NCBI GenBank assembly: GCA_036269995.1 | Contig: DATBDJ010000014.1 | Coordinates: 36,785 to 100,784 of the forward strand | Length of the DNA stretch: 64,000 nucleotides | Origin: Candidatus Udaeobacter sp. | GTDB lineage: Bacteria; Verrucomicrobiota; Verrucomicrobiia; Chthoniobacterales; UBA10450 | Reading direction: 5' to 3' | In this document: one piece after another, positions 18,903 through 50,252 of the stretch | How the letters are laid out: each line of letters starts with the position of its first letter | Numbering within the stretch: the stretch's first letter is position 1 | Translations under genes and position numbers: made by a program | Notes under the pieces: model-generated | Database searches by the model: none | Told to the model about the DNA's origin: nothing | The model's input: the letters and a program-made list of their open reading frames with translations, nothing else

Positions 18903-18941
18903 ATTAATTGGGCGTTGGAGGTTGGACGTTTACAGTTCGAC

Positions 18942-24500: not shown

Positions 24501-24923
24501 CACGATGTTATTTGGTCCCATTCGGTCCGAAATGTCGTCGCGTCCAAGTGTGGCCGAAGTCGTAAGGCGCTTCGGCGTGCCGCCATCCGCAGGCATCACG
24601 TACACTTCACGATTGCCGTCGTACTCCGAAGTGAAAGCGATCTGCGTTCCATCCGGTGAAAAGCGCGCAAATGAGGTGTAACCCGGCCCACTCGTTAGAC
24701 GCCGGGCGGTACCGCCGCTTTTGTCAACGGCATACAACTGGCCGGCATAGCAAAAGACGATCTGCGCGCCATTCGTAGTCGGAAAACGCAGCAGCCGCGC
24801 CGTGTTGGGCGCGCCACCCTGATTTGCCGTTGCCGACGGACTTTGCGCCGAGATCGATGGAACGAAGGGTGCAGCTTGCGCCAACAAAAAAAGAACCACG
24901 AAAGACCGGAAAAATATGTTCAT
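21507..24923 (-). CDS. tricorn protease homologue (beta-propellers + PDZ + S41 peptidase), secreted
   Basis: 1138 aa with a signal peptide. N-terminus LLRFPTTNGAQIVFCYAGQLYAV..GG.ARRLTS...FSPDG..IAF matches tricorn-type PD40 repeats, and the C-terminus has a PDZ and an S41 domain. There is an internal K/E-rich segment. Confidence 0.85.
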   Translation of the reverse strand: MNIFFRSFVVLFLLAQAAPFVPSISAQSPSATANQGGAPNTARLLRFPTTNGAQIVFCYAGQLYAVDKSGGTARRLTSGPGYTSFARFSPDGTQIAFTSEYDGNREVYVMPADGGTPKRLTTSATLGRDDISDRMGPNNIVMTWENTKPLVVFRSRMTSFNDFIGSLLAVSLDAELPQQLPVPRGGFVSFSPDDSKMAYNRVFREFRTWKHYRGGMADDIWIYDFKTGATENLTNDPAQDICPMWASDNKIYFISDRDNRMNLFVIDPATKETKQLTHFTDFDIKFPSIGKDSIVFEQAGSIWRYDLATAQAAPVPIEIKEDFDSGRGGLVDGSKHLESVNLAPDGERTIVVARGDLFSVPAKNGTPRNLTKTSGAHERDAIWSPDGKWIAYNSDATGENELYVRPQDGRGDPQQITNGADTYYYTPKWSPDSKKLLWSDRLQRLRYVDVTTKSVTQVDQDKYGEIQDYNWSPDSQWITWVRPEENGMPRVYIYSLGNKQQSAVTDNWYGSGEAAFSDDGKYLLLTSARDFKPSFGDQEFANVYRDMERVYLVTLAKDTPNPLAPKSDEVGKAEEKRKKEKAKEAEPKKSEPSPSATKGEEKPKKAVAVKVDADGIQNRIVGLEITPGNYRNLRMLDDGRIFYLRRTAADEVGADEEDLFSDRDRKSHLCSYNLDERKETVLGDANNYQITFDGKKMLVKIKKDYAIVDVPKDKLETKDHEHKIEGLDMQLDRHAEWHQIYFECWRQMRDFFFSPTMNSVDWKAMRDKYAALLPFVNHRNDLTYLLGELIGELNNGHAYVGSGERPDTPRIKLGLLGAEFSRDAATRAYRIERILPGENWTKQTRSPLTEIGVNVKPGDYILAINNTPVSGLPNLYDALIGTAGKQVVLRVNSKPADDGARDVTVVPTQDEAPLYYLDWVQKNMDYVNKKTGGEVGYLHIPDMGRPGLDEFTKLYFPQIRKHALIVDVRGNGGGFVSPLVIERLRRAFMMVGIARNGMPQTDPPQAFTGPMVTLINEFSASDGDIFPYRFKALGLGKLIGKRTWGGVVGIRQSLPLVDGGQFFKPEFAIYSKDGKQWIVEGHGVDPDIVVDNDPGKEFKGEDQQLDRAIQEIQDELKTKRYDLPSPPPWPNRNPAGGT

Positions 24924-36587: not shown

Positions 36588-37286
36588 ATGAAAGTCTCAA
36601 TCGTAATCCCTTGTTACAATGAAAAAGATACGATCGAAAAAATCGTTCAAGCCGTTCGCAACGCCCCCGTTGAAAGCAAAGAGATCATTGTGGTGGACGA
36701 CTCTTCAGACGACGGGACGCAGGCAGTGCTGCAGGACCGGGTTTCGAATGTAGTCGATCGCATCATTTATCATCGGGTAAATCAAGGGAAGGGAGCGGCC
36801 TTACGAAGCGGATTTGCCGCAGCGACTGGTGAATTGATTCTCGTGCAAGATGCAGACCTCGAATACAGCCCCGAAGATTATCCGCTGCTTCTTGAGCCGC
36901 TCATCTCAGGCAAAGCCGACGCGGTTGTTGGCTCCCGTTTTATGGGCGGACGACCGCACAGGGTGCTTTTCTTCTGGCACATGGTTGGTAACAAATTTTT
37001 GACGCTGCTTTCGAACATGTTCACCAACATTAATCTGACCGACGTGGAGACAGGCTACAAAGCTTTCAGAGCCCCGCTAATTAAGTCGATTCGGATAGAG
37101 GAAGATCGCTTTGGAGTCGAACCGGAGATTATCGCCAAGCTCGCCCGCACCGGATGCAGAATTTACGAGGTAGGGATCTCGTACAGCGGACGCACTTACG
37201 CGGAGGGCAAGAAGATCAATTGGACAGATGGCTTTAGGGCGGTTTATGCCATCTTCAAATACAACCTGGAACGTTCGAAAAGATGA
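36588..37286 (+). CDS. family 2 glycosyltransferase, DPM1/ArnC/GtrB-like (putative polyprenyl-phosphate sugar synthase), soluble
   Basis: 232 aa from the ATG at 36588. VSIVIPCYNEKDTIEKIV, VVDDSSDDGT, VQDADLEYSPEDYP and TDVETGYKAF form the GT-A DxD pattern of the polyprenyl-P-sugar synthase subgroup. No TM segment. The ORF-track start at 36408 would overlap uvrA. Confidence 0.8.
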   Translation: MKVSIVIPCYNEKDTIEKIVQAVRNAPVESKEIIVVDDSSDDGTQAVLQDRVSNVVDRIIYHRVNQGKGAALRSGFAAATGELILVQDADLEYSPEDYPLLLEPLISGKADAVVGSRFMGGRPHRVLFFWHMVGNKFLTLLSNMFTNINLTDVETGYKAFRAPLIKSIRIEEDRFGVEPEIIAKLARTGCRIYEVGISYSGRTYAEGKKINWTDGFRAVYAIFKYNLERSKR

Positions 37287-38851
37287 AAGAGGCCTTGGTT
37301 CAAAACGCGACGGCGCCTTTGGCTGAAGATAGTTGCGCGTCGAACGCAATCGCCGGCCAAGCTTTGCTTGCAACCAGGTCGGATGTAAGGGCTGAGACTT
37401 GGGGTCCGGCGGCGCTTGAGCAAAGACGCGAACGCACCCGTGATCATTTGGCTAGGATTGCTACTCGCCGAGAAATCTGGATCAGTCGTAACAAGTACTA
37501 CTACGAACTGCTGAGCCGGCTATTTCGTTTTTTGGTCGAGCCACAGAAAAGCGTTCTCTCGGTTCGCTGCGGCATCGGGAATCTTTTGGACGTGGTGCGG
37601 CCAGCTAGAGCCAAAGGTGTCGATATCTGCGCTGAGATTGTGGAAATTGCGCAGCAACGAAATCAGACGTTCGAATTTGCGGTGGCGTTTCCAGACAAGG
37701 AAGAATTCCGGCACTGTTTCACCTCGGATGAAAAATTCGATTACATCCTGTTTAATGACATCGGCGACACCGTGGATGTACTCCAAGCCTTGCGCAATCT
37801 GGCGCCCCTTTGCCAGAGACACACCCGCGTCTTGATAACAACTTACAATCATCTGTGGGAACCCTTTGTTACTTTCGCCGAATGGCTGGGAATGAAGGTG
37901 CCGCGCATGGAGCAGAACTGGCTTTCCACGGCTGATATTCGAAATCTGCTGAAGCTCGCCGGGTTTGAGGCGCTTGAGACGCATCGAATTGTCCTTTTGC
38001 CGAAATACTTGCCCTTGTTGTCTGGCTTTCTTAATCGTTTTTGTGCGCGCCTGCCGTTTTTAAGCAAGCTCTGCATGACTCAGGTGGTCGTCGCGCGATT
38101 GTTGCCACGGCCGGTGCCGTCGGCACAGTTTTCCGTGTCCGTTGTCATTCCATGCAAGAATGAGAAAGGGAATGTCGAGGATGCTATCCGGCGCATTCCC
38201 GCGCTGGCGAGCCGGACAGAAATAATTTTCTGTGACGATCGCTCCACCGATGGAACGGCTGAAGAAGTCTTGCGGGTACAGTCAGTATACCCGCAGAAGA
38301 ACATTCGTCTTGAGCATGGGCCTGGTGTTTGTAAGTCGCGAAACGTATGGACCGGTTTCAATGCTGCCACAGGCGATGTTTTGATGATTCTCGATGCTGA
38401 CCTAACCACAATTCCCGAGGAACTGCCTTACTTCATCGATGTTATAGCTTCTGGACAGGCTGAGTTTGTGAATGGATCGCGCCTTATTTATCCAGTTCCA
38501 CAAGGGGCAATGAACGGAGCAAACATGCTGGGTAACAAATTCTTCAGCGTCGCGTTTACCTATCTGCTCGGGCAGAGGGTGAAAGACACTCTGTGCGGCA
38601 CAAAAGTTCTTTGGCGAAGCGACTGGGAGAGAATTAAACCAATGCTCGGGAGCTGGGGAACCGAAGATCGCTGGGGAGACTATGAACTGTTGTTTGGGGC
38701 TGCAAAATTGAACCTTAAGATTCTCGACTTACCTGTGCACTACCAGGAACGGATCTATGGTTCGACAAAGATGACCAAGATCTTTCGAAACGGAATTGTT
38801 ATGCTTAAGATGTGCTGGCATGGCTTTTTGAAGTTGAAACTCGGATACTAA
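37283..38851 (+). CDS. bifunctional class I methyltransferase-like domain + family 2 glycosyltransferase fusion
   Basis: 522 aa. The N-terminal ~260 aa have a Rossmann MT motif I-like segment, VLSVRCGIGNLLD. The C-terminal ~250 aa carry VSVVIPCKNEKGNV, FCDDRSTDGT, ILDADLTTIPEELP and DTLCGTKV (GT2). ATGA overlap with the upstream GT2. Confidence 0.8.
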   Translation: MKEALVQNATAPLAEDSCASNAIAGQALLATRSDVRAETWGPAALEQRRERTRDHLARIATRREIWISRNKYYYELLSRLFRFLVEPQKSVLSVRCGIGNLLDVVRPARAKGVDICAEIVEIAQQRNQTFEFAVAFPDKEEFRHCFTSDEKFDYILFNDIGDTVDVLQALRNLAPLCQRHTRVLITTYNHLWEPFVTFAEWLGMKVPRMEQNWLSTADIRNLLKLAGFEALETHRIVLLPKYLPLLSGFLNRFCARLPFLSKLCMTQVVVARLLPRPVPSAQFSVSVVIPCKNEKGNVEDAIRRIPALASRTEIIFCDDRSTDGTAEEVLRVQSVYPQKNIRLEHGPGVCKSRNVWTGFNAATGDVLMILDADLTTIPEELPYFIDVIASGQAEFVNGSRLIYPVPQGAMNGANMLGNKFFSVAFTYLLGQRVKDTLCGTKVLWRSDWERIKPMLGSWGTEDRWGDYELLFGAAKLNLKILDLPVHYQERIYGSTKMTKIFRNGIVMLKMCWHGFLKLKLGY

Positions 38852-38936: not shown

Positions 38937-39659
38937 GTGCAAGACCGCATTGCCAAAGAAATTCAACACGGCAGGTTTCTGGCCAAACACGGGGCAGGGA
39001 AGATTTGGAATTGGGAAAGTCCAGCCGGCAAACTGCGCTGGGCGAGGCGCGTAAAGATGCTAAGCGAGCATCTCGGACCGGGAATGAGTGTTCTCGAATT
39101 GGGCTGCGGCACAGGGTATTTTACTCGTGAACTGGCTCGCTCTGGAGCGGAAATTGTCGCGATTGACGTCTCACCAGAGCTCCTGGAAACCGCGAGGGTG
39201 AGTTCTTCTGCGCCGAATGTTCGTTACGAAATCCAGAACGCCTATGATCTAAGCTATACTGATGCCGCTTTTGATTCCGTTGTCGGCAGCTCGGTCTTAC
39301 ATCATCTAGAAATCCAGCAGGCCTTACGCGAAATTTTCCGGGTTTTGAAGCCCGGCGGCAGAATTTCATTTACAGAACCGAACATGCTGAACCCGCAGAT
39401 CGCGCTGCAGAAGAATGTACCTTGGATTAAACGAAAACTTGGCGACTCACCGGATGAGACTGCTTTTTTTCGATGGTCGCTCCGGCGCCTTCTTGAGATA
39501 ACGGGCTATCGTGAGGTTCGAATTACCCCGTTCGATTTCCTGCATCCCAAAACGCCTAATCAGCTAGTTGATCGGTTGAACTCCGTCGGGCGATTCCTCG
39601 AAAGCGTGCCGGTAATGGCTGAGTTCGCCGGCTCCCTTTACGTTCGCGCCGTAAAATGA
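38937..39659 (+). CDS. class I SAM-dependent methyltransferase
   Basis: 240 aa with a GTG start. Motif I VLELGCGTGYFTRELA, and a post-I acidic residue in VAIDVS. Confidence 0.85.
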   Translation: MQDRIAKEIQHGRFLAKHGAGKIWNWESPAGKLRWARRVKMLSEHLGPGMSVLELGCGTGYFTRELARSGAEIVAIDVSPELLETARVSSSAPNVRYEIQNAYDLSYTDAAFDSVVGSSVLHHLEIQQALREIFRVLKPGGRISFTEPNMLNPQIALQKNVPWIKRKLGDSPDETAFFRWSLRRLLEITGYREVRITPFDFLHPKTPNQLVDRLNSVGRFLESVPVMAEFAGSLYVRAVK

Positions 39660-40435
39660 GCACGATCACTATGCATAACGAGGAAGCGAAAGATCGCGCG
39701 GCAACGTTGCGTAATCGGGCACACCTCGGCGCGAATCAGAATCTTCTTTTTTGGTATCGCGAACTTTACTGCGATCAATTCAAGGATTTTCCAAACCCGT
39801 CGGCGCTGTCGATCTTAGAAATAGGAAGCGGCACTTCGCCCCTTAAACAATTTCTCTCAAACGTAGTAACCAGTGACGTGCTTAATCTGGGGTACCTCGA
39901 TCTTGTGTTTGACTGCCATGAAATCGACAAGTTGGACGCGATAGAGGACAACACTCTTGACGTTATCACACTCACGAATGTGTTGCATCACCTGAAGAGT
40001 CCGATTTTGTTTCTAAGTCGCGCGGCCAGTAAGTTGAAATCCGGCGGCAAAGTTATTGCGACCGAGCCTTTTTTTTCCGACGTATCAACTCTCATATTTA
40101 AGTATCTGCATCACGAACCGGTCGATTTCAGAATTTCCCACCCCGAACTTAGCCATATGCAGGGACCACTGTCATCAGCCAACATTGCATTGCCGTGGCT
40201 AATTTTCTGCCGGACACCCGAATGGCTCCAGCCGCTGAATGATTACTTCGATCTCACGAGAATTTCCACGAGACCGTTCAGTGCCGTCTCGTACATGGTT
40301 ACTGGTGGAATATCGCACAGGTTGCCAGTTCCCGCTTTTCTCTATCGCATGTTATTTCGCGTGGACCTCGCCCTTAGTCGTTGGTGTCCGAGTGTCTGCG
40401 CGAGTTTCTTTACCGTAACTCTGACACGACGCTGA
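39656..40435 (+). CDS. class I SAM-dependent methyltransferase (divergent)
   Basis: 259 aa. ILEIGSGTSPL is motif I, and VITLTNVLHHL follows. ATGA overlap with the previous gene. Confidence 0.7.
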   Translation: MSTITMHNEEAKDRAATLRNRAHLGANQNLLFWYRELYCDQFKDFPNPSALSILEIGSGTSPLKQFLSNVVTSDVLNLGYLDLVFDCHEIDKLDAIEDNTLDVITLTNVLHHLKSPILFLSRAASKLKSGGKVIATEPFFSDVSTLIFKYLHHEPVDFRISHPELSHMQGPLSSANIALPWLIFCRTPEWLQPLNDYFDLTRISTRPFSAVSYMVTGGISHRLPVPAFLYRMLFRVDLALSRWCPSVCASFFTVTLTRR

Positions 40436-41172
40436 TGTTCGCGATGTCCCTTCTTCGCGGAGTCGGGAATAAGGCTTACCAATATACCTTTCCTGTCTAC
40501 CGCCTTTGTTATCGCGCTTTCAAAGCTTACACTGATCGTGCGGAGCGGCTACTGCTGAGGAGCATTTTGTCGGAGGGAGCGGTCGTGGTGGACGCGGGTG
40601 CGAACATTGGGGTGTATTCGCAGTTTCTTTCCCGCTGTGTTGGTCCGACCGGCGTTGTTCATTCCTTTGAACCTTCGCCCGAAAATTTTAAGCGCCTGCA
40701 GTCTGCTACCCGCAACCTTGCAAACGTCCGCCTGTCTCAAGCTGCGGTTGGAGAATGCAGCGGAAGGTCCAACCTGTACGTTTCGGATCAACTAAATGTG
40801 GATCACCGCACCTACGCGACCCGCGGCGATTCGCGCCCCACTCTCCAAATCGATATCATAGCGCTCGATGATTATTTTGAGCCGGGCGAGCGCATTGATC
40901 TGATCAAAATGGATATTCAAGGATACGAGCTTTACGGCTTGCGAGGCACTAACCGTGTTTTGGCTGACAACCCCGCAGCAAAGTTGCTCCTGGAATTTTG
41001 GCCTTACGGCCTCAAACAGGCTGGAGCGAACTGGCGTGAATTGATTGATTTGCTGCGAACTAAAAACAGGTCGGTTTTCCAGATAACAAATTATGGGCTC
41101 GTCCCGTTCCGCTCCGATTCAGTTAGGGTCAGCCCGGAGTGGTACGTGAATCTTTTCGCCTTGTCGAAATAA
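40435..41172 (+). CDS. FkbM family methyltransferase
   Basis: 245 aa from the ATG at 40435, which shares one nt with the preceding TGA. VVDAGANIGVYS...VHSFEPSPENFKRL matches the FkbM signature. Confidence 0.8.
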   Translation: MFAMSLLRGVGNKAYQYTFPVYRLCYRAFKAYTDRAERLLLRSILSEGAVVVDAGANIGVYSQFLSRCVGPTGVVHSFEPSPENFKRLQSATRNLANVRLSQAAVGECSGRSNLYVSDQLNVDHRTYATRGDSRPTLQIDIIALDDYFEPGERIDLIKMDIQGYELYGLRGTNRVLADNPAAKLLLEFWPYGLKQAGANWRELIDLLRTKNRSVFQITNYGLVPFRSDSVRVSPEWYVNLFALSK

Positions 41173-41230: not shown

Positions 41231-43123
41231 TCACTGCCTGCCTGGTAAGAGCAAAACCAGCCCGCCAGCTTCGAGAACGCGATGCCAGCCGGGATCAATC
41301 GATTGAAGCGTCGCCAAGACTCGCTGGCTTTGAGATTCTGGAACTGCAACGGCGTTTGCGCGATTGGTTTCGATGACCTGACGAAATTGCGGTTCGAACA
41401 GTTGAAGCCGTTTAAAACGGTCGGCATTGTCGCCCTCGATAAAAACCTGCGCCTGGCGGCGGAGTTTGCCTTCCGCCGGATTGCCTGCGTTGGTAAAATA
41501 GTGAGTGACAAGGCGGGGCGCCACGACTTTCATTGTGGGAAATAGTAGCGGTAACTCGCAACCAGCCGTCCACGTTGGCACGAGTAGTTTACTCTGATCG
41601 ATATACTTGCCGGCGGCCAGACCGAAATCCGTGTTCTCTTTAACTAACTGATATTCGAGAGGCGTTTTCCATGCAGCCTGTCGGCTAATTGGCGTGATCG
41701 AGAGTGCACGATAGGTGCAAAAGAAAGTAACTACGATAGCCAGTAGCGCCGCCACAAGTAGGGGCCGCCGTCCCACAGGAGTAACCGCCGTCTTTCCGAA
41801 CAACCGCGGACCTGCTGTGGGCAACATGGCGCAAAGCAATGGTAGCGGCACCAAATAATTCAACCGAAAGTAACACAAGGCCATGATGTGTCTCATCCAC
41901 CAAGGCGCAAGCAGGGGGTTCAAGCAAAAAAGCCACACCGCGCAAGCATAAAAGAAGAGAAAAAGACCGATCTTCCCGCGGACGACGATGAGCGGCACAG
42001 CAGTCATCAGCAGAATATTTCGGACGTACCCTGCTGGTCCGCCCACGAAAAACGTCATGGCTTGGCCCCATGGCATGTATGTTGACCCGTACATGCTTAT
42101 ATCGATTGGCTTCGGAATTATGTTAACAAGCAGCAAAACTAATATTCCGACCGGATAGACGAGTGGTATTATCAGGAGCAGCCCGCGAGCGATGTGTTTC
42201 CGCAAGTATTCGGCTCCCCCATTTTCAAATAGCTGAGTCGTAAAAAAGGCCAGCCAGGAGCACCCAATTACCGCTGGGATCAAATAAAGAGCCGTATTAG
42301 CTACACCAACACTAGCGATGCTCAAAAGAGTTAGCCACACGAGATCACTTCGGTTGCCGCGACTCAAAAATCGATAGCTGATGGCAAGACCGAGCGGCAA
42401 TAACAAAATGAACACGATCGATCGCCCTTCCCAGAGATAGCCGGCAGCCATCCCAAAAGACCAGTAGCGGGAAACAGTTCCAATCACCGCCGGTCCAGGA
42501 TTGTCCAATAGCAAAAACGCCACGGCGAGTAACGTACCGACGGCGGCTGGCCAGCGAGACAATCCGAATTGTCGGACGCACCAGTAAAAGACAAAGGGGA
42601 TCAAAAATGCGCTCAGCGCATGGCCGATGATTTGATAAAAGTATAAAGGATCGATACCAAGGTAGTGACTGAGGATCCCCAAGAGCATCTCGTAGCTGGT
42701 CGCCAGATGAACCGGAGAGAATGCAGCGGCGTCGAGATCGACGCTCGTTTCGCGCAGGTAGATGGGCTGCTTAAGATCCAGCAACTGGGACAGAACTCTA
42801 TGGAAATAGACGACATCATCTTGATTCGGCCGCCGCACGAAAAGGACTGTAGTTGCACATGCAACGCCCACGACCACAAGAAGGATGTGAGGCAAATGGA
42901 ACCGATAGTATTTGCCAGGCATCGCGTTTGTCTTTTTCCACAAACGCGCAAGCAAAAAGAAACCGCCGATGACCAAAGCTAGAAAGCACCATGTAATCGT
43001 TGCCGCCGGCCATCTTACGACAAGCACAAACTGGTAGGCGAGGGTCCAAAATGCGAATAGCGCGACTGGCAGAAGCACGATGTCAGCGGCTCGAGATTCG
43101 GCAGGCTTTTCGGAAATCAGCAT
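41231..43123 (-). CDS. polytopic membrane protein, GT-C-like glycosyltransferase candidate (1 of 4)
   Basis: 630 aa. The first ~470 aa contain about 12 hydrophobic segments, with an acidic pair in the loop RRPNQDDVVYFH (aa 102-103). The last ~150 aa form a soluble C-terminal domain. The family was not recognised by eye. Confidence 0.55.
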   Translation of the reverse strand: MLISEKPAESRAADIVLLPVALFAFWTLAYQFVLVVRWPAATITWCFLALVIGGFFLLARLWKKTNAMPGKYYRFHLPHILLVVVGVACATTVLFVRRPNQDDVVYFHRVLSQLLDLKQPIYLRETSVDLDAAAFSPVHLATSYEMLLGILSHYLGIDPLYFYQIIGHALSAFLIPFVFYWCVRQFGLSRWPAAVGTLLAVAFLLLDNPGPAVIGTVSRYWSFGMAAGYLWEGRSIVFILLLPLGLAISYRFLSRGNRSDLVWLTLLSIASVGVANTALYLIPAVIGCSWLAFFTTQLFENGGAEYLRKHIARGLLLIIPLVYPVGILVLLLVNIIPKPIDISMYGSTYMPWGQAMTFFVGGPAGYVRNILLMTAVPLIVVRGKIGLFLFFYACAVWLFCLNPLLAPWWMRHIMALCYFRLNYLVPLPLLCAMLPTAGPRLFGKTAVTPVGRRPLLVAALLAIVVTFFCTYRALSITPISRQAAWKTPLEYQLVKENTDFGLAAGKYIDQSKLLVPTWTAGCELPLLFPTMKVVAPRLVTHYFTNAGNPAEGKLRRQAQVFIEGDNADRFKRLQLFEPQFRQVIETNRANAVAVPESQSQRVLATLQSIDPGWHRVLEAGGLVLLLPGRQ

Positions 43124-43187
43124 TGTCGGATCACACTTTGAGTTTTATTAGCTTGATGTGATAACCGACGTTCCAACGAGCTGGTGG

Positions 43188-44870
43188 TCAACTGGGAATT
43201 CTTGCCCGAAAAAGCAGAATAGTTGGGAACGGGTACGTCATATCTTGAGGAAAACGCATCAGCCCGAACTCGTGTCCCCAAATCCGTACTGGCACGCGAT
43301 AGCTTTTTGCATATTGAAATTTTCCCTGTGCCTCCACCTGCCGAATAGATGCGTTCATCTGCTCAGGGCTAATTTCAGTGGGGAATCCTACCAACAAGAA
43401 GTCAGCATTTTCTTCAGCGTTCTGAAACTGGACGGCTACTGTCTCGCTCTCTAATGGCTTGGCTCCCGGCATTGCGGTATAAAAGGACGGTCCGAATTGC
43501 AAAACGCCGATTTTCGCCGGACCCGCACCAATCAATGTTTGAAGATCCTCCCGAACAATTTCGCGAGCGTCCTTGCGCTGCATGGCCCCAATGTATGCAA
43601 GGTCGAAAATAAAGGATGGCACAAAGATCAGCAGGAGCGCGACGCCCAAAACAATGGTTGTCGTCCGTTTGTTTTGCACCGCCAGTTGTATGTCGCCGCA
43701 GACAATTCCAACAAGTACACAGAACCCAGGAAACAGAATCAGGGTTATTCGCGCGAAATAAGGACCCAGGTACCCCTTGCCCATCAGGTAAAGATACAGG
43801 ACTGAAAAAATCAGTATTGGAGCGGAAAGGCCGTAAAGGTTGCGCCTAAAGAGAAGATACAATATTGCGCAGTAGGGGGCCAACCAAAGCACGGGATACG
43901 TCGCTAACGGAATCACGTACGTAATATACCTCCAAATAACCGATAGATTTAGCACCTGACTCCTGCTGAACTCATGCAACGACGCATATTTTAGGGTTTC
44001 ATTGGTAATTGCCTTTATAACGCTCGCTGAATCTAAGAAGAGCATCGGATGACCGACGAACAGGCCAATTCCAAAGCCGAAACCAATGAACCAAACCTGG
44101 GTGGCGACAAAACTTCTTGCCCGCTCTGCAAATCGCGCGGCAGTGCCTGGTGACTCGTTACTGCCGTCAAATAGCAAATGCAGGCAGGGAATCACGACAA
44201 TGATTCCAACAGGATACCGTGTCGCTGCTCCTAAACCAGAAATTAGACCGACAAGAACAAGCAGGTGCCACGATTGAGATTTCCGAAGCTTGAATGACAA
44301 CCAAATGACTAAAATGCACAATAGATTGCTGAGGATGTGAGTCCTCATAAAATGAGCATAGATCACCTGCATTGGCAGAACTGCGTAACAAAGCGCCCCG
44401 ACTAGGGATGGGTAGAACCACTGGGTCGCTTCTCGAATCGCGAGGAACACAACCACGACTGTGCAGAGGTCGAACAGGACAGACATCCATCGACAGATGT
44501 ACAAAAGCACAGACTGGTCCCGTGTATTCCCTGGCTCGCCCCCATAACGGGCTTTGTTGCCAAAAAGCTTCAATATCGCTTGTGGCATAGCCCACACATA
44601 ATAATTGAACGTCCCCTCAAAGTATGCTCCTGGGGCTTTAATATGACCTGTTAGTAAATCCAGTTGGCGGACGCCTCTAAGGCTTACAAACTCGTCAGGC
44701 TGAAAATTCAGGTCGTGTCCGTACCCGCTGTTGAGACCCCACGCCAAGCCGGCTACTCGGAAAAAGGCTGCCAACAAGAGCACTCCTGCGAATAACGCGG
44801 GTCGAAGTGCTTTTGCCGTAAATCGACGTCGCGCCGTAGCATCTCCGGAAAAAGCTGTCGATCGCATCAC
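43188..44870 (-). CDS. GT-C glycosyltransferase, ArnT/PMT_2-like (2 of 4)
   Basis: 560 aa. TM1 is followed by NFQPDEFVSL (D59-E60) in the classic first-loop position, then more than 10 TM segments and a ~130-aa C-terminal soluble domain. The ORF starts GTG-ATG, and the ATG at 44867 is equally possible. Confidence 0.7.
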   Translation of the reverse strand: MMRSTAFSGDATARRRFTAKALRPALFAGVLLLAAFFRVAGLAWGLNSGYGHDLNFQPDEFVSLRGVRQLDLLTGHIKAPGAYFEGTFNYYVWAMPQAILKLFGNKARYGGEPGNTRDQSVLLYICRWMSVLFDLCTVVVVFLAIREATQWFYPSLVGALCYAVLPMQVIYAHFMRTHILSNLLCILVIWLSFKLRKSQSWHLLVLVGLISGLGAATRYPVGIIVVIPCLHLLFDGSNESPGTAARFAERARSFVATQVWFIGFGFGIGLFVGHPMLFLDSASVIKAITNETLKYASLHEFSRSQVLNLSVIWRYITYVIPLATYPVLWLAPYCAILYLLFRRNLYGLSAPILIFSVLYLYLMGKGYLGPYFARITLILFPGFCVLVGIVCGDIQLAVQNKRTTTIVLGVALLLIFVPSFIFDLAYIGAMQRKDAREIVREDLQTLIGAGPAKIGVLQFGPSFYTAMPGAKPLESETVAVQFQNAEENADFLLVGFPTEISPEQMNASIRQVEAQGKFQYAKSYRVPVRIWGHEFGLMRFPQDMTYPFPTILLFRARIPS

Positions 44871-46525
44871 TCGGACGCCGTTGATGCCTGATCAGAAGCG
44901 ACGGCAGTAAGCGTTAGGATTGCCCCACTATCTTGAGCGCTGTTTAGAGTGTGCCACTCCCACCCGACAACCTTTGGCAGGCGGAATTGGTTGGTGGCGG
45001 CTTCGTCTTGGGATGTAAATAGCGCGTAAACCGGGAGCGACTGCTGCAAGCCATGTTCGACAAGGGCCATCGCCTGTGGCCGATGATAATGCCAGGTGTC
45101 GCTCCACTTGTAATGATGCTTCCCATCGATCGGAGCTGCCACGAATGAAGGTCCCAAGAGCGCGTTCAAGTAGACGGGATCAATGTCACTAAGCACGATG
45201 CCAGGTTGCCGGCTTACAGCTTTGGCGAAGTTTCGTTGGGCGACAAACTGGATAGACTGACGAGGTGGAGTCGTAAAATGAAGAGCGTCCCACGCTTGAA
45301 ATCGGCCGATTCCATGCGCGTTATAGCCGGAGCGCGATGGGTAGCCGAGACAGGCTGCGGCGAATAGAAGGAAAGGAGCCAGACTTGCAATGAGTCGTTT
45401 GCCAGCAAAGACGTTATTTGCAGCCCACATAATGGGCAGAACAGCGATCGCTACAACAAGAATTAAAAGTGGCAGATACAAACGTCCATCTGCGCCAAAG
45501 AGATAGCACACTGTCGCCCCAAAAGAACTCAATCCAGATAAGAAGGCACAGCAAACGAACCAACTGAGCCGGATCAAAAGGAGACCGGCGCAAATCAAAA
45601 GGACGAAGGCCGGCACAAAAGACGTGCCCGTCCCGAAAATATTGGCAGCATCATATCCGTGTGGCTGCAGTGTAAATTGCTGCCACAACATGCCGACATT
45701 GTTGATGACATAAAAAACTGAAAACAAAAGGTGTTGCGTACTAAGATACGACGCCCAGAAGTCGTAACCGGTTTTGAATGGTGAACGGAACTGGATCGTG
45801 TTTAACACGAGCACAGGGCTGGCGGCCAAAACAAACACAACGCATACCGCAGCGCAACGGAGCAACAGACGCCAGCGACGCCCTTGTACTGGAACCACGG
45901 CTATCGCCAGCAACAATGGAGCGAAAAAAAGCGACTGGAGCCGCACGTTTACTGAAAGCCCTACAAAAAGCGCCGCTAAACAGATGTTACACCAGCGTCC
46001 TTGCCTAACACCCAGATAGGAAAACATAAATGCCAAAACGATAAGCAGTGAGGCACTTACCTCGCTAAGTGACGAACGACAAAACGTAAAGAAACCGGGC
46101 AGCGTAGCCAATAACAACGTCGCAACCCCCCCTGCCAACGGCATCGCTAGATACGCGTAAAAAACAAACACTGCCAAAAGCAACAGAAGTCCCATCGTTT
46201 GGCTCGTACGAAGCGGCGCCAGCACGGCATCCGCCGCCGGCAGAATCTTCAGCCACGGAAGCATCAACACAGGGTACCCAAAAGGGTATCTTGATGGCAA
46301 TTTCTCATAGGCGATTTGTATGAAAGGCCAGCCATGTCGTTCCAGAGCTGCTGCCTGCGCGAAATATTCCGTGGCATCCGGATGTGGAGCAAGATTGAGC
46401 AGGGTTGTCTTGCTGTAATCAATCCTAAGCACCGCGAAATAATAAAACGTCAAGGCGCAAACAAAGAGTAGTGTGCCAATTAAGAACGGCGGAACAATAA
46501 GCTTCGCCTTGAGGCCTTCTCTCAT
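44867..46525 (-). CDS. GT-C glycosyltransferase, ArnT/PMT_2-like (3 of 4)
   Basis: 552 aa. TM1 is followed by APHPDATEYFAQAAAL (D50, E53; a D-x-x-E-Y loop motif), then more than 10 TM segments and a ~170-aa C-terminal soluble domain. The stop overlaps the start of the next gene. Confidence 0.7.
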   Translation of the reverse strand: MREGLKAKLIVPPFLIGTLLFVCALTFYYFAVLRIDYSKTTLLNLAPHPDATEYFAQAAALERHGWPFIQIAYEKLPSRYPFGYPVLMLPWLKILPAADAVLAPLRTSQTMGLLLLLAVFVFYAYLAMPLAGGVATLLLATLPGFFTFCRSSLSEVSASLLIVLAFMFSYLGVRQGRWCNICLAALFVGLSVNVRLQSLFFAPLLLAIAVVPVQGRRWRLLLRCAAVCVVFVLAASPVLVLNTIQFRSPFKTGYDFWASYLSTQHLLFSVFYVINNVGMLWQQFTLQPHGYDAANIFGTGTSFVPAFVLLICAGLLLIRLSWFVCCAFLSGLSSFGATVCYLFGADGRLYLPLLILVVAIAVLPIMWAANNVFAGKRLIASLAPFLLFAAACLGYPSRSGYNAHGIGRFQAWDALHFTTPPRQSIQFVAQRNFAKAVSRQPGIVLSDIDPVYLNALLGPSFVAAPIDGKHHYKWSDTWHYHRPQAMALVEHGLQQSLPVYALFTSQDEAATNQFRLPKVVGWEWHTLNSAQDSGAILTLTAVASDQASTASE

Positions 46526-46560
46526 AAGTACGGAACGGACGAAGATTGATCGAGCAGCAC

Positions 46561-48582
46561 CTACTCCAGGACGCGCTCGAGCCGCCGGCCAGGTTTAGTA
46601 TCGTTTCTTAAAAAGATAACGCTATTCGCTTCGCCGCAGCGGTACTCCTTGTAGCCGCATTGTCTCAGGCGTGTCCCAAATTTCTGATAGAACCAGTCCC
46701 ACCGATTCTGCTCCTGGTATGGTGGAATAATGACGGCTGAGATATCCAACCGAGTAAGATACGGAGGACAGTTGTCGCTATCGTTAAGCTCGTGAAACAG
46801 ATCTTGATATCGCGCTGGCCCAAAATAGTCCCCTACACTGACGATGTTTGCTATTTTTCGAAAGTAAAAATGTAGCCGCTCAGTTCTCAAAACAAGAACG
46901 TGTGTCTGCTTCTTGTGTTCGGATGCAAGCGTCTCAATCACAGCCTCGCTGGCGGGATAACCAGAGAGATTCTTCTCCAGATAACGTTCTGGGTCCCCGC
47001 CAAGGCGGAACAAATCAAATGTGCTCGCATAATAATCACGGTAAAATCCTAGCCACCCATGCTTTGAGTTGGGTACTAGGAGAGTTGGACTGGGAATGAT
47101 CAGCGCCCCACAGAATGCGATCGTAGCCGCACCAAGCGTCAATGTTGCCAGCGGCGAACGCCAAACTGCGTTTGCGCGGGCGTAGACATATGAAACAGCG
47201 ACGCCTATCCAAGCCGCGAGCACGGGGTACCAGTGAAGCGAATATCTCCCCAAGGAGCTGAAAAACCACGGAATTGCCAGGTATGTAGCTGCAGCAGATA
47301 AATAAGTGAACTGGCGCGGCCACTGCCATCGCTCCCGCAAAAATGGCTGCGCGGCGACAAACAAAACTGGCCCATACAGCAGTATTATCATTGCGCTTAT
47401 ACCCCATTCTCTGAAGTCTTTTGACGCGGGATCCGCGAAGAATTGGAATGGCAAGAATAGTAGATGCCATGGCTTTTGCTGAGTAATCGTATCACCGGTG
47501 TAAAGCTGCGCGTCCGCTTTCGTAAAGACCGGGTCAGGGCGGTTGAAATACAAATTGAAAAGAGGTGGGGCGGGGTCATGGGCTTCAAGTAGGTTTCGCG
47601 CATACCAAGGGAGGCTAAGTGCGACCAAAAATACACAGAGCAGCGCGATGTATCGTGGTCGCAGGCGCCGCATGGACGCGACACACAGCGAGACAATAAA
47701 AAACGGCAGGTGACCGATGAGTGTAAGCTTCATCCCTGCGCAAAAACCGGCGATCACGACAAGCTCGCGTTGGAATCCGTGATGTGATGACGTTCTATAG
47801 ACGCAGAGAACAGAGAGAAGAAGAAAAAGTCCAATAGGCACATCCACGTAAGCAGTGTTCAAATAGCGAAGGAAGACCGGAGACAGGGCTACGGCTAGAG
47901 GGATTAAAAATTGCTGGGGATAAAAACGGCTCCCAACATGGATATTGGCAGCAAAATCAGCTTTAACCGGACCGAAGAAGGCCACAATTCCCAAGCAGGT
48001 AAGTAACCCACAGAGCCAGGTCAGAAAATGACAATAGTCTCCTAAACTCAGAATAAATAAGGCACTGTATAGAAGTAGAAAGTTATTTGCGTAATACGGA
48101 AAACGCAGAAAGGGATCAACATAGATGTGGCCCGCATTGGCCCAATCGACGGCATATGCCAAATGATAGGCCACTGAATCGAAAAGGGTTGGGGGAAGAA
48201 CCGCCGGTATTCCCAATACCAGAAACACTACGTAAATGAAAAATGCCGAGCTCGTCCAAGCCTTGAGGAAGCGGCTAGACGTCGTTCGCCAGAACGACGA
48301 TGACAGCCAGCTATCGCCTTTCAGCTGCCAAAATAGAATTCCTTCAGCTAATATTGTTCCCAACAATCCGAATCCATTAAGTAAGTGTGCGAACCCCAGG
48401 AATAACAATGCGAATCCAAATAACGCCATTCCCGCCACGGATGTAATGACAAGGTCGGAAAGCGAAATGCCATCCGCTTTATCGGAAGTCTTTGGCCTAA
48501 ACAACTGGCCGGTCGTAAAGAAGTAAAACCATGCAAAATGAGCTGCTGCCAGGCCGACGAAATAGCTTTGAAGAATTTGCAT
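46561..48582 (-). CDS. polytopic membrane protein, GT-C-like glycosyltransferase candidate (4 of 4)
   Basis: 673 aa with about 14 hydrophobic segments. Loop motif PPTLFDSVAYHLAYAVDW (D135) and a ~190-aa C-terminal soluble domain. Confidence 0.55.
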   Translation of the reverse strand: MQILQSYFVGLAAAHFAWFYFFTTGQLFRPKTSDKADGISLSDLVITSVAGMALFGFALLFLGFAHLLNGFGLLGTILAEGILFWQLKGDSWLSSSFWRTTSSRFLKAWTSSAFFIYVVFLVLGIPAVLPPTLFDSVAYHLAYAVDWANAGHIYVDPFLRFPYYANNFLLLYSALFILSLGDYCHFLTWLCGLLTCLGIVAFFGPVKADFAANIHVGSRFYPQQFLIPLAVALSPVFLRYLNTAYVDVPIGLFLLLSVLCVYRTSSHHGFQRELVVIAGFCAGMKLTLIGHLPFFIVSLCVASMRRLRPRYIALLCVFLVALSLPWYARNLLEAHDPAPPLFNLYFNRPDPVFTKADAQLYTGDTITQQKPWHLLFLPFQFFADPASKDFREWGISAMIILLYGPVLFVAAQPFLRERWQWPRQFTYLSAAATYLAIPWFFSSLGRYSLHWYPVLAAWIGVAVSYVYARANAVWRSPLATLTLGAATIAFCGALIIPSPTLLVPNSKHGWLGFYRDYYASTFDLFRLGGDPERYLEKNLSGYPASEAVIETLASEHKKQTHVLVLRTERLHFYFRKIANIVSVGDYFGPARYQDLFHELNDSDNCPPYLTRLDISAVIIPPYQEQNRWDWFYQKFGTRLRQCGYKEYRCGEANSVIFLRNDTKPGRRLERVLE

Positions 48583-48750
48583 CTACCGGCGCGTAATCGG
48601 TCTTACCTATGTGGCTAGCAAGGTATCAATCAGGTGAAGAGGCTTTTGCTGAGGAAGAAACTCGACATTATGCGCAATCAGCAAGCGACTCATCGGTCGA
48701 ACAGCGAAGCACTGGCGGGAGCGATTCCAGTGGAATAGACTGTCATCAAC

Positions 48751-49815
48751 CTAGTCGAGATAATTCTGCAGGAATAACTGCATGATGTGCTGCGCTCCGG
48801 CGCCTCTGACGTGTCTCAGATCATCCTCCCACACAGCGCCGCGATCAGAGTTTTGCACGATTTCGTAACTTGGAAAGTAATCCACGTTGGGATGTGCGCT
48901 GGCCCACTCCTGAGCCACTGCTCGCAAAAGCGATTTGGCCCAAGTGTTGGCCACCACAATATCCATGCTTGAAAAGGTGTTCATCAAAGGAACGGGAGAA
49001 ACCGTGACTACAATGTGAAAGTCGGAATGTCCATGGAGAGACAACAACATGTATATGGCTTCCAGATTAGCGAGGTTGTGAGCAAAATTAGTTAGATGAA
49101 ATTCGTACCGCCCTGGTTCAGTCTTGAACAAAGATGGAATAGGAGTGCAATTTAGAAATACGTCTGCCTGAACGTCGCGCCAAATTTCTGCAAGCCCGAG
49201 CGTGACGATCACTGCGCGACAGCTCTGGATGCGCTTTGTTACCAGTTGCATCAGCGCGCGACGCTCCAAGGTCTCCTCCAACCCCACGAAGTTTAAGGTG
49301 GGGGTCGTATGTGGGTCATACCACGTTATGTTTGTTAATGGCACAATGGACTCCCGAGGGAATTCTGCGTCTGGATCAAGCGCCCACCGAAGTTCGTTCA
49401 GTATTGAATACGTGTTGTACTTATTGGTGAATCCGAGACCGGACCTTTCTCTGTTAGCCGACTGAAGCTTCGCAAATTCGGGCGCTGCGCTTTCAACAGC
49501 TAGTTTGCGTCCTGCGAGTGCGTTTTCGAGCCCGCGCGCAAAACACGACCCGATCGCATAGAATTTATCGTCTCGGCGAAGTTTGAACTTTGGATTGATT
49601 TGAGGTGTAAACCAGGTGTCACGCAATCGCTGGAAAGCGTATTTACGAGGCTGATCAGTGAGCCCAACACCGTCCTTGTACCAAGTTCTTGCGGCGTTGG
49701 TCGCATAATTCTTCATCGCCTCAGCGGCGGCCATGACATATGGGGATTTGGTCAAGGCCGAACGATTGCCTGGTGGAGCGACAACCGTCCTTTCGTTAAA
49801 AAATGCCCCAGACAT
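48751..49815 (-). CDS. GSCFA family protein
   Basis: 354 aa. It contains the eponymous motif in FYAIGSCFARGLENAL at the position expected for a GDSL/SGNH-like nucleophile block. Confidence 0.75.
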   Translation of the reverse strand: MSGAFFNERTVVAPPGNRSALTKSPYVMAAAEAMKNYATNAARTWYKDGVGLTDQPRKYAFQRLRDTWFTPQINPKFKLRRDDKFYAIGSCFARGLENALAGRKLAVESAAPEFAKLQSANRERSGLGFTNKYNTYSILNELRWALDPDAEFPRESIVPLTNITWYDPHTTPTLNFVGLEETLERRALMQLVTKRIQSCRAVIVTLGLAEIWRDVQADVFLNCTPIPSLFKTEPGRYEFHLTNFAHNLANLEAIYMLLSLHGHSDFHIVVTVSPVPLMNTFSSMDIVVANTWAKSLLRAVAQEWASAHPNVDYFPSYEIVQNSDRGAVWEDDLRHVRGAGAQHIMQLFLQNYLD

Positions 49816-49835: not shown

Positions 49836-50252
49836 TTATCGCTGCGCGAGCAGATAAATCGCTATCAATGTGAGCAGAAAGTAGGGAACAAGGACCGCTG
49901 CTCCAGCGTACTCTTTTGCCATTCGCTGGCCGAAGAAAAGCGAAATAACCGCCACCGCAGAAATGACTGCACCATAGTATGCGACGGTTGAATCGTGCAA
50001 GAACATCACCGCCAGGCAGCCAATAGCACTCAGCGCGCCTGCTGCGAGTTCGAGAATCGTGATTACCGTCACCAACGCCGGTACAAATCCGGCTAATGGA
50101 CTTTTGGCAAAATGTCCCTTTAGCCATTCAAGGTTTCCACCGCGGTCGATGATCTTATCAATTCCCGATTGAAGAAAAAGAATCGCCAGAAAGGCGGATG
50201 CGAGAATCTGCATCAGATAAATTGCTTGGCTGAACGTGTGCGAAGCGGGCAT
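49836..50252 (-). CDS. DoxX family membrane protein
   Basis: 138 aa with 4 hydrophobic segments. FLAILFLQSGIDKI is the DoxX-like first-helix pattern. Confidence 0.6.
   Translation of the reverse strand: MPASHTFSQAIYLMQILASAFLAILFLQSGIDKIIDRGGNLEWLKGHFAKSPLAGFVPALVTVITILELAAGALSAIGCLAVMFLHDSTVAYYGAVISAVAVISLFFGQRMAKEYAGAAVLVPYFLLTLIAIYLLAQR

Follow-up and report, generated by a model that had tools for sequence, protein, structure and literature searches.

Four adjacent membrane proteins of probable GT-C type and different families in a strain-variable gene island of Candidatus Udaeobacter

In the three-component route of glycosylation, a cytoplasmic family-2 glycosyltransferase (GT2) loads polyprenyl phosphate, a flippase exports the product, and a glycosyltransferase of the GT-C superfamily makes the transfer outside (PMC11127046, PMC8035078). 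The superfamily is built on a polytopic core of about 8-13 transmembrane helices (PMC8035078), a range into which the four proteins described here fit with 10-13. These proteins, called P1 to P4, are encoded by four adjacent minus-strand open reading frames (ORFs) in a 64,000-nucleotide stretch of DNA (positions 36,785 to 100,784 of contig DATBDJ010000014.1, assembly GCA_036269995.1; the whole stretch is called the window) from Candidatus Udaeobacter, an uncultured soil bacterium. The ORFs lie in an island of low guanine-plus-cytosine (GC) content, which spans 36.4-50.25 kb of the window and also encodes two soluble GT2 enzymes, four methyltransferase domains and one GSCFA protein. Candidatus Udaeobacter ranks with the most abundant bacteria of soils; to our knowledge nothing is known of its envelope glycans, and no papers were found on Udaeobacter glycosyltransferases or on GT-C enzymes in Verrucomicrobia. 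The analysis indicates that P1-P4 are very probably all GT-C enzymes, drawn from four different families.

The four ORFs had exactly the positions and sizes given in the original prediction (Table 1), and translation placed each of the four acidic motifs at the residues named there. In P1 the motif NQDDVVYF (D102/D103; window 42803-42826) follows transmembrane segment 3, and in P2 and P3 the motifs FQPDEF (D59/E60; 44688-44705) and HPDATEY (D50/E53; 46364-46384) occupy the first loop. The P4 motif LFDSVAYHL (D135; 48160-48186) lies in the loop after transmembrane segment 4 together with a further aspartate, D156 (48115-48117). Family-averaged hydropathy gave 13 transmembrane segments and a soluble tail of 159 amino acids (aa) for P1, 11 segments and a soluble tail of 137 aa for P2, 10-11 segments and a tail of 157 aa for P3, and about 13 segments and an alpha/beta tail of 168 aa for P4, all within the at least 10 hydrophobic segments and 130-190-aa tails predicted. 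The helices of the AlphaFold2 models of P1 and P4 agree with these segment numbers. The reasoning that had singled out the acidic residues was borne out by their being invariant or nearly so within each family: D102 was kept in 60/60 and D103 in 59/60 P1-family proteins, which are only 20-30% identical overall, D59/E60 in 18/18 relatives of P2, D50/E53 in 25/25 relatives of P3, and D135 and D156 in 36/37 and 37/37 relatives of P4, respectively. E145, G224, R420 and R555 were likewise invariant in the alignment of 60 P1-family proteins. Orientation was predicted by applying the positive-inside rule to family-averaged profiles. For P1 (K+R 17.5 vs 10.3) the N-terminus was predicted inside, and the D102/D103 loop and the C-terminal tail outside; for P2, with 4-5 lysine or arginine residues before the first transmembrane segment, the N-terminus was inside, and the D59/E60 loop and the tail were outside. 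In P4 a lysine/arginine-rich loop (residues 89-111) precedes transmembrane segment 4 and puts D135/D156, on the far side of it, locally outside. The expectation that all motifs face outward was upheld for P1 and P2 and locally for P4; for P3 it depends on segment 85-103.

Two of the four proteins could be placed, with different firmness, by family models. P2 passed the Pfam gathering cut-off for PMT_2 (PF13231; 34.9 bits, E 2.2e-8, cut-off 26.1 bits). P3, whose sequence occurs unchanged in a metagenome-assembled genome (MAG) listed at NCBI as Candidatus Udaeobacter sp., reached PMT_2 only sub-threshold (16.3 bits, E 0.012) and matched, again below the cut-off (7e-6), the NCBIfam LA_3751/LA_3752 putative glycosyltransferase family. 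PMT_2 was also matched by 7 of 25 P3 relatives, at E 4e-4 or weaker, and P3 was weakly and reciprocally linked by hidden Markov models (HMMs) to a bona fide PMT_2 family from the same locus in other genomes.

The other two had to be approached through relatives and predicted structures. P1 alone matched no Pfam or NCBIfam family, DUF6077 (PF19554) included. However, 53 of 60 full-length distant relatives found with the P1 profile matched DUF6077 (best E 8e-23), so membership of P1 in this family is transitive. Its family is large, with 682 clusters at 50% identity in a deep HMM search; no papers were found that mention DUF6077 or DUF2079, a further family of the locus. P4 alone likewise matched no Pfam or NCBIfam family, including DUF1420 (PF07220), and 16 of 37 P4 relatives (55-70% identity) matched DUF1420, some with 23.9 bits against a cut-off of 19 bits, over only about 100 residues. 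AlphaFold2 models made from homologue alignments were of moderate quality, with a pLDDT (confidence score) of 60 and a pTM (predicted TM-score) of 0.65 for P1, and 70.8 and 0.72 for P4. Foldseek searches of the PDB with these models, in which a lack of GT-C matches would have refuted the original prediction, returned at probability >=0.4 DPY19 (E 7e-4), STT3A, ArnT, Pmt1/Pmt2, ALG9, EmbA/B and ALG3 for P1, and AftA (E 1e-3), ALG9 (TM-score 0.45), AglB, AftD, PglB, AftB and Pmt4 for P4. Transporters, receptors and other non-GT-C proteins in the same lists had probabilities of at most 0.25, and transporters of at most 0.12. Because the high-probability matches were exclusively GT-C enzymes, P1 and P4 are assigned to the GT-C class; as TM-scores reached only 0.31-0.45, the assignment is one of fold class and not of precise homology.

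The gene contexts of distant DUF6077 members, taken from loci L051 (Logan SRR24224856), L049/L050 and L047, independently favour a GT-C role. One DUF6077 gene adjoins genes for a DegT aminotransferase, a formyltransferase and an NAD-epimerase/dehydratase as well as for a GT2-DegT fusion, a gene set resembling the Arn pathway in which, by analogy, DUF6077 occupies the place expected for ArnT. Another DUF6077 protein (906 aa) has TPR repeats fused to its C-terminus, an arrangement shared with TMTC-type enzymes, and a third neighbourhood contains an epimerase and a sulfotransferase next to a GT2 of 232 aa and additional unannotated multi-transmembrane proteins.

The original prediction had called the four proteins diverged paralogues of one shared architecture, with no obvious mutual similarity. 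The last part was confirmed: the best BLASTP E-value among them was 0.033, and hhalign comparison of the family profiles gave probabilities <1% for all six pairs and for deep-P1 versus P4. These profiles were shallow (Neff, the effective number of sequences, about 2), so very remote homology among P1-P4 is still conceivable. An HMM cross-search among 17 membrane-protein families of the related loci found nothing meaningful between any P1-P4 pair; the only links joined two YfhO-like families to one another, plus weak PMT_2-type links. The term paralogues could not be sustained on this evidence, as no sequence, HMM or profile-profile link was found among four families that are DUF6077-like, PMT_2, weakly PMT_2-like and DUF1420-like. 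The shared architecture proved to be merely the generic GT-C plan of a multi-transmembrane core with a periplasmic C-terminal domain, and the tails matched neither each other nor, when searched alone, any Pfam family. By eye, all four proteins end, in the last ~25 aa, in a short aromatic/hydrophobic strand-turn-strand (GGLVLLLP, PTILLFRA, GAILTLTA, NSVIFLRN), and the AlphaFold2 models of P1 and P4 end in terminal beta-hairpins. The top P1/P4 hhalign segment, non-significant at a probability of 0.28%, pairs the motifs PNQDDVVYFH and PPTLFDSVAYH (D103 with D135, H108 with H140); the surrounding P1 residues 94-111 and P4 residues 126-143 each follow a transmembrane helix preceded by a lysine/arginine-rich loop.

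It could be argued from this pairing, together with the common fold class, the same orientation and the tight spacing of the genes, that P1-P4 are nevertheless ancient paralogues of one ancestral gene which diverged in place beyond recognition. We consider this very improbable. No method gave a significant similarity, and each protein is tied to a different Pfam family. The 682 clusters of P1 relatives already indicate separate clades with closer kin outside the locus. Moreover, P4 is a discrete insertion missing from near relatives, and the same site in relatives holds many unrelated GT-C families in varied order, which argues for horizontal exchange rather than local duplication.

The evidence for exchange comes from 46 related loci, 44 of them from a genome scan seeded with P1 and two others. 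Conserved across these loci are the methyltransferase/GT2 arm and a frame, in which uvrA bounds the locus at one end and CN-hydrolase, the SDF symporter gene and sm138 bound it at the other. In the window the four GT-C-type genes are convergent with this arm and lie within 12 kb, and the linkage of GT-C genes to the arm is kept in about 50 loci. Between them the large membrane proteins vary, with at least 12 BLASTP-unrelated families and 1-6 proteins per locus. The P1 family was present in 42 of the 46 loci, sometimes in two copies, an apparent ubiquity that is a selection effect, as all genome-scan loci were picked via P1. P3 was found in 22 and P2 in 19 loci, the triplet P3-P2-P1 being common. 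A DUF2079 family occurred in 12 loci, and two families that have no annotation occurred in 10 and 6, respectively. Further families at the locus comprise two YfhO-like, three PMT/PMT_2 and one DUF6541. P4 was found in only three contigs beyond the window. The suggestion that four GT-C enzymes in one operon are unusual outside mycobacteria was overstated in view of this range of one to six such genes per locus, and multi-component GT-C systems are widespread (PMC11127046, PMC8035078).

Comparison with the nearest relative, locus L043, resolved the exchange at the nucleotide level. Identity was 92% across uvrA-GT2a and 86% from MT-GT2 to P1, and only 69% across P2-P3 (window 43207-46457 against L043 6625-9877), a mosaic divergence that suggests allelic replacement by recombination. 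It fell to zero across exactly P4 and its spacers (the cassette in Table 1) and returned to 85-91% beyond. Loci L003 and L004, like L043, lack P4 and the spacers, so that GSCFA is there followed directly by P3. P4 is a clean presence/absence cassette, and the set P1-P4 was therefore built by gene shuffling and not by tandem duplication. An origin of the cassette from a mobile element was considered and rejected, as its flanks showed no notable repeats, direct or inverted, and alignment of the junctions was uninformative. The order P4-P3-P2-P1 recurs in a metagenome contig (81, 70, 66 and 75% identity) together with a fifth GT-C protein of the DUF2079 type, and in a further variant (L053/L054) the large membrane proteins number five or six and are accompanied by an epimerase and by a GtrB-type GT2 with a membrane anchor. 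The membrane-transferase set was brought together by gene exchange and is shuffled from strain to strain. L043 also has an extra 514-aa protein with 8 transmembrane segments between MT-GT2 and GT2a. Four loci with Udaeobacter-type synteny and a P1 60-79% identical (L013, L020, L025, L028) come from MAGs labelled Limnocylindria, Alphaproteobacteria, Pyrinomonadaceae and Scandinavium sp., labels that probably reflect binning contamination rather than horizontal transfer.

The remaining genes of the island are arranged in two convergent blocks (Table 1). The minus-strand block runs sm138, GSCFA, P4, P3, P2, P1, so that P1-P4 form its tail end, and the plus-strand block runs GT2a, MT-GT2 fusion, MT1, MT2, FkbM methyltransferase. 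Every gene in the island has a GC content of 0.49-0.53, compared with 0.55 for the genes on either side of it (uvrA; SDF symporter, CN-hydrolase, carB). The gaps among P1-P4 are 35, -4 and 64 bp, spacing that fits putative co-transcription; a scan for promoters and terminators found fewer promoter-like sites than in shuffled sequences and no convincing intergenic terminators.

Table 1. Features of the island and their positions in the window (aa, amino acids; SAM, S-adenosylmethionine)
Feature	Description	Position	Strand	Basis
P1	Divergent DUF6077 member, predicted GT-C fold, 630 aa, ATG start	41231..43123	-	Pfam matches of relatives, AlphaFold2/Foldseek
P2	PMT_2-family GT-C enzyme, 560 aa, GTG start	43188..44870	-	Pfam PMT_2
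P3	Probable GT-C enzyme, weakly PMT_2-like, 552 aa, ATG start	44867..46525	-	Sub-threshold PMT_2
P4	Protein related to DUF1420, predicted GT-C fold, 673 aa, ATG start	46561..48582	-	Pfam matches of relatives, AlphaFold2/Foldseek
P4 insertion cassette	2.3 kb	46458..48751		blastn against L043, L003, L004
GT2a	Soluble family-2 glycosyltransferase, candidate polyprenyl-phosphate-sugar synthase, 232 aa	36588..37286	+	Pfam Glycos_transf_2, 9e-33
MT-GT2	SAM methyltransferase-GT2 fusion	37283..38851	+	Methyltransf_23 (residues 71-232), Glycos_transf_2 (residues 286-414)
MT1	Class I SAM-dependent methyltransferase	38937..39659	+	Pfam Methyltransf_11, 2e-25; kept in related loci (66-88% identity)
MT2	Class I SAM-dependent methyltransferase	39656..40435	+	Pfam Methyltransf_23, 2e-9; kept in related loci
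FkbM	FkbM-family methyltransferase	40381..41172	+	Methyltransf_21, 7e-16; NCBIfam fkbM_fam, 1e-24, above cut-off
GSCFA	GSCFA-family protein	48751..49815	-	Pfam GSCFA, 3.6e-42
sm138	138 aa, 4 transmembrane segments, no family	49836..50252	-	Four hydrophobic peaks; GC 0.506

The ORF of GT2a was listed from a GTG at 36408, overlapping uvrA by 60 bp; the start is most likely M61, which gives the length found in relatives. The listed TTG start of FkbM, which overlaps MT2 by 55 bp (40381-40435), is probably also too far upstream. MT-GT2 is kept in most related loci. Neither GT2a nor MT-GT2 has a transmembrane helix. Their best NCBIfam matches, all below the curated cut-offs, were AglJ, dolichyl-P-hexose transferase, PpgS and ArnC for GT2a, and for MT-GT2 AglJ and dolichyl-P-hexose transferase. 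The GSCFA protein, which we take to be SGNH-hydrolase-like, has no signal peptide and no transmembrane helix, and belongs to the variable block, its position and identity (52-82%) differing among loci. The conserved sm138, 20 bp upstream of GSCFA, resembles GtrA-type flippases in size and topology only; it matched no Pfam or NCBIfam family, GtrA included, and is a flippase candidate by size and topology and no further. In two loci (L010, L036) the SDF/CN-hydrolase block is inverted and sm138 moves with it; because it segregates with the flanking block, its functional coupling to the island is disfavoured.

Taken together, P1-P4 can be read as glycosyltransferases that depend on lipid-phosphate-linked sugars and form the transferase arm of an envelope-glycan island which is self-contained and varies among strains, a full mechanistic picture which we regard as reasonably probable. 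Most likely the island serves to assemble or decorate, in the periplasm, an envelope glycan that differs between strains and is probably methylated, with lipid-linked sugars as the donors. On the cytoplasmic face, GT2a and MT-GT2 would transfer monosaccharides from nucleotide sugars to polyprenyl phosphate; this putative donor is favoured by context, through the resemblance of these adjacent GT2 enzymes to polyprenyl-P-sugar synthases and the GtrB-type GT2 and epimerase of the variant locus. The four SAM-methyltransferase domains and the esterase-like GSCFA protein could modify the sugars or their carriers, and suggest that the sugars are modified, probably O-methylated. After transfer of the lipid-linked sugars across the membrane by a flippase, the acidic loop residues of the GT-C proteins (P1 D102/D103, P2 D59/E60, P3 D50/E53, P4 D135 and/or D156) would drive sugar transfer in the periplasm to an acceptor, which may be a glycan, a lipid or a protein. 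The acceptor, and presumably the linkage, would be chosen by the C-terminal periplasmic domain of each enzyme; since P1-P4 are unrelated in sequence, they probably form different linkages or use different acceptors. Gain, loss and replacement of GT-C genes from strain to strain would then alter the glycan produced.

Several observations weigh against this picture. The structural matches of P1 and P4 are weak in their TM-scores (only 0.31-0.45) and E-values (~1e-3 at best), and for P1 the model is poor, with a mean pLDDT of 60. Searches with hmmsearch against PDB sequences, including one with the deep P1 profile, gave no sequence or profile link between any of the four families and solved GT-C structures. 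The topology of P3 is ambiguous, as it hinges on whether the weak hydrophobic segment 85-103 is a transmembrane helix or not. In P4 the charge pattern flips in mid-protein and the global transmembrane parity is inconsistent, which indicates a miscount of segments. The seeding of the genome scan with P1 also counts here, as does the distance of both GT2 enzymes from the NCBIfam equivalog models, whose cut-offs they miss by far (e.g. 132 vs 325 bits), so that the acceptor is not fixed by these matches. Finally, Pfam and NCBIfam scans of the island genes revealed no lipid-sugar flippase of the GtrA, SMR or MATE type.

The low scores, the marginal E-values and the lack of Pfam or PDB sequence matches for P1 and P4, together with the fact that DUF6077 and DUF1420 have no experimental characterisation, could also mean that one or both are not glycosyltransferases but other polytopic membrane proteins, such as a transporter, a polymerase/ligase or a scaffold, with a superficial resemblance to GT-C. 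We judge this to be quite unlikely: every high-probability structural match of the two proteins is a GT-C enzyme, and the matches span many GT-C families. In addition, an acidic pair that is invariant, in a loop predicted to face outward, is accompanied by invariant arginine residues, and the genes lie among lipid-sugar synthase-like GT2 genes and other recognisable GT-C genes.

If P1-P4 are GT-C enzymes, the acceptor could be a protein. Some or all of them would in that case be PMT/TMTC-like and would glycosylate periplasmic or surface proteins, an interpretation that differs from the envelope-glycan island only in the acceptor. P2 is a PMT_2 member, P3 is weakly PMT_2-like, and the loop-1 D-E pair of P2 resembles the acidic loop-1 "DE motif" of PMT enzymes. 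The TPR repeats of the 906-aa P1-family protein are a protein-binding module, as in TMTC, and streptococcal three-component systems are reported to glycosylate Ser/Thr-rich regions (PMC12041528). However, PMT_2 is broad enough to take in ArnT-like transferases that act on lipids and glycans, TPR repeats are absent from the window proteins, and no target protein is encoded in the island. Four methyltransferase domains and cassettes that differ at the level of strains are also more typical of polysaccharide loci than of protein O-glycosylation, which we consider unlikely here.

Modification of lipid A or of the lipopolysaccharide core in the manner of ArnT/EptA, in which a GT2-made polyprenyl-P-(amino)sugar would be put on lipid A or core phosphates and alter the surface charge, was weighed in the same way. 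It would agree with ArnC being among the best GT2 matches and ArnT among the structural matches of P1, and with the distant DUF6077 gene in an Arn-like gene set. The Pfam scan, however, showed none of the aminotransferase, formyltransferase, dehydrogenase or deformylase genes of the Arn pathway in the island, and four transferases with four methyltransferase domains exceed what one decoration of lipid A would need. As a rule, Arn loci are conserved and not cassette-shuffled, and this explanation appears improbable.

The reading of P1-P4 as the transferases of an envelope-glycan island would provide a functional assignment, as GT-C lipid-sugar transferases with named candidate catalytic residues, for two uncharacterised families, DUF6077-like and DUF1420-like. 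Multi-GT-C arrangements are already known and not rare; what distinguishes this locus is that the units swapped at a fixed chromosomal site are GT-C genes, two DUF families of no assigned function among them, instead of the usual cytoplasmic glycosyltransferases. If the reading is correct, the locus could serve as a strain-typing marker and as a source of new periplasmic glycosyltransferase specificities, and would be an example of surface-glycan diversification via the lipid-linked monosaccharide route. A bolder version, which we think doubtful, is that a Udaeobacter surface glycan is built wholly outside the cytoplasm by interchangeable GT-C cassettes from methylated polyprenyl-P-monosaccharides at a serotype-like hot spot, without Leloir chain-building and without Wzx/Wzy/ABC export. 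This would make the island a Gram-negative analogue of mycobacterial arabinan assembly, diversified among strains under phage or predator pressure.

The annotated remainder of the window outside the island consists of housekeeping genes. Among them is a gene whose bacterial product is homologous to the lipase maturation factor of eukaryotes (18915-20465, plus strand; LMF1 7e-65, LMF1_C 4e-47), and at 21507-24923 on the minus strand the window encodes a 1138-aa tricorn-like protease with PD40 beta-propeller repeats, Tricorn C1, PDZ and Peptidase_S41 domains. No Wzx/Wzy, ABC exporter or initiating phosphoglycosyltransferase was found among the annotated window genes.

Among known systems, the ArnT and PMT/TMTC enzymes of the PMT_2/GT39-GT83 group are close to P2, which shares with them the D-E pair in loop 1 after the first transmembrane segment and a C-terminal domain predicted to be periplasmic; P3 has the same layout with weaker scores. 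They differ in that P2 and P3 show no detectable similarity to the solved sequences and their tails have no MIR or TPR domains. For P1 and P4, relatives match DUF6077 and DUF1420 whereas the window proteins fall below both models, and a GT-C fold for the DUF6077-like and DUF1420-like families is predicted from structure models and gene context.

At the level of the locus, Gtr-type systems are alike in that GT2 enzymes, here candidates for the polyprenyl-P-sugar-synthase type, adjoin GT-C transferases whose acidic motif lies in a loop on the outer side, here a predicted position, and in that their GT-C components have low sequence similarity and are strain- or serotype-specific. In contrast to the one GT-C gene of a Gtr locus, there are four here and up to six elsewhere, mutually unrelated. 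GtrB is membrane-anchored, whereas the two synthase candidates of the island have no anchor, and the island has no recognisable GtrA, SMR or MATE flippase. Four methyltransferase domains and GSCFA are integral to it, and no backbone-polymer cluster is evident nearby.

Mycobacterial arabinan/mannan assembly (EmbA/B/C, AftA-D, PimE-type) likewise employs several GT-C enzymes, partly in tandem, which could polymerise from polyprenyl-P-monosaccharides in the periplasm. The likeness extends to the level of the fold, AftA, AftB, AftD and EmbA/B being among the structural matches of P4 or P1, and the D-D pair after the third transmembrane segment of P1 resembles what we take to be the "DDX" motif of Emb proteins. 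However, P1-P4 match no Pfam arabinosyltransferase family, and no UbiA-type phosphoribosyltransferase or DprE1/2 epimerase is among the Pfam matches of the island. The Emb/Aft set is conserved, whereas the island is shuffled among strains of a Gram-negative-type Verrucomicrobium. The mycobacterial comparison is apt as an analogy and not as a statement of membership.

Hypervariable O-antigen and capsule loci are alike in the genetics of the site, which is fixed, with UvrA and SDF/CN-hydrolase/CarB as the conserved genes at its two ends, has a GC content lower than that of the genome, and shows mosaic sequence as well as presence or absence of genes between close relatives. The island differs from them in having no Wzx/Wzy or ABC-transporter export genes. 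It differs further in the nature of the exchanged genes, which there encode cytoplasmic Leloir glycosyltransferases of the GT-A/GT-B folds and here encode GT-C membrane transferases.

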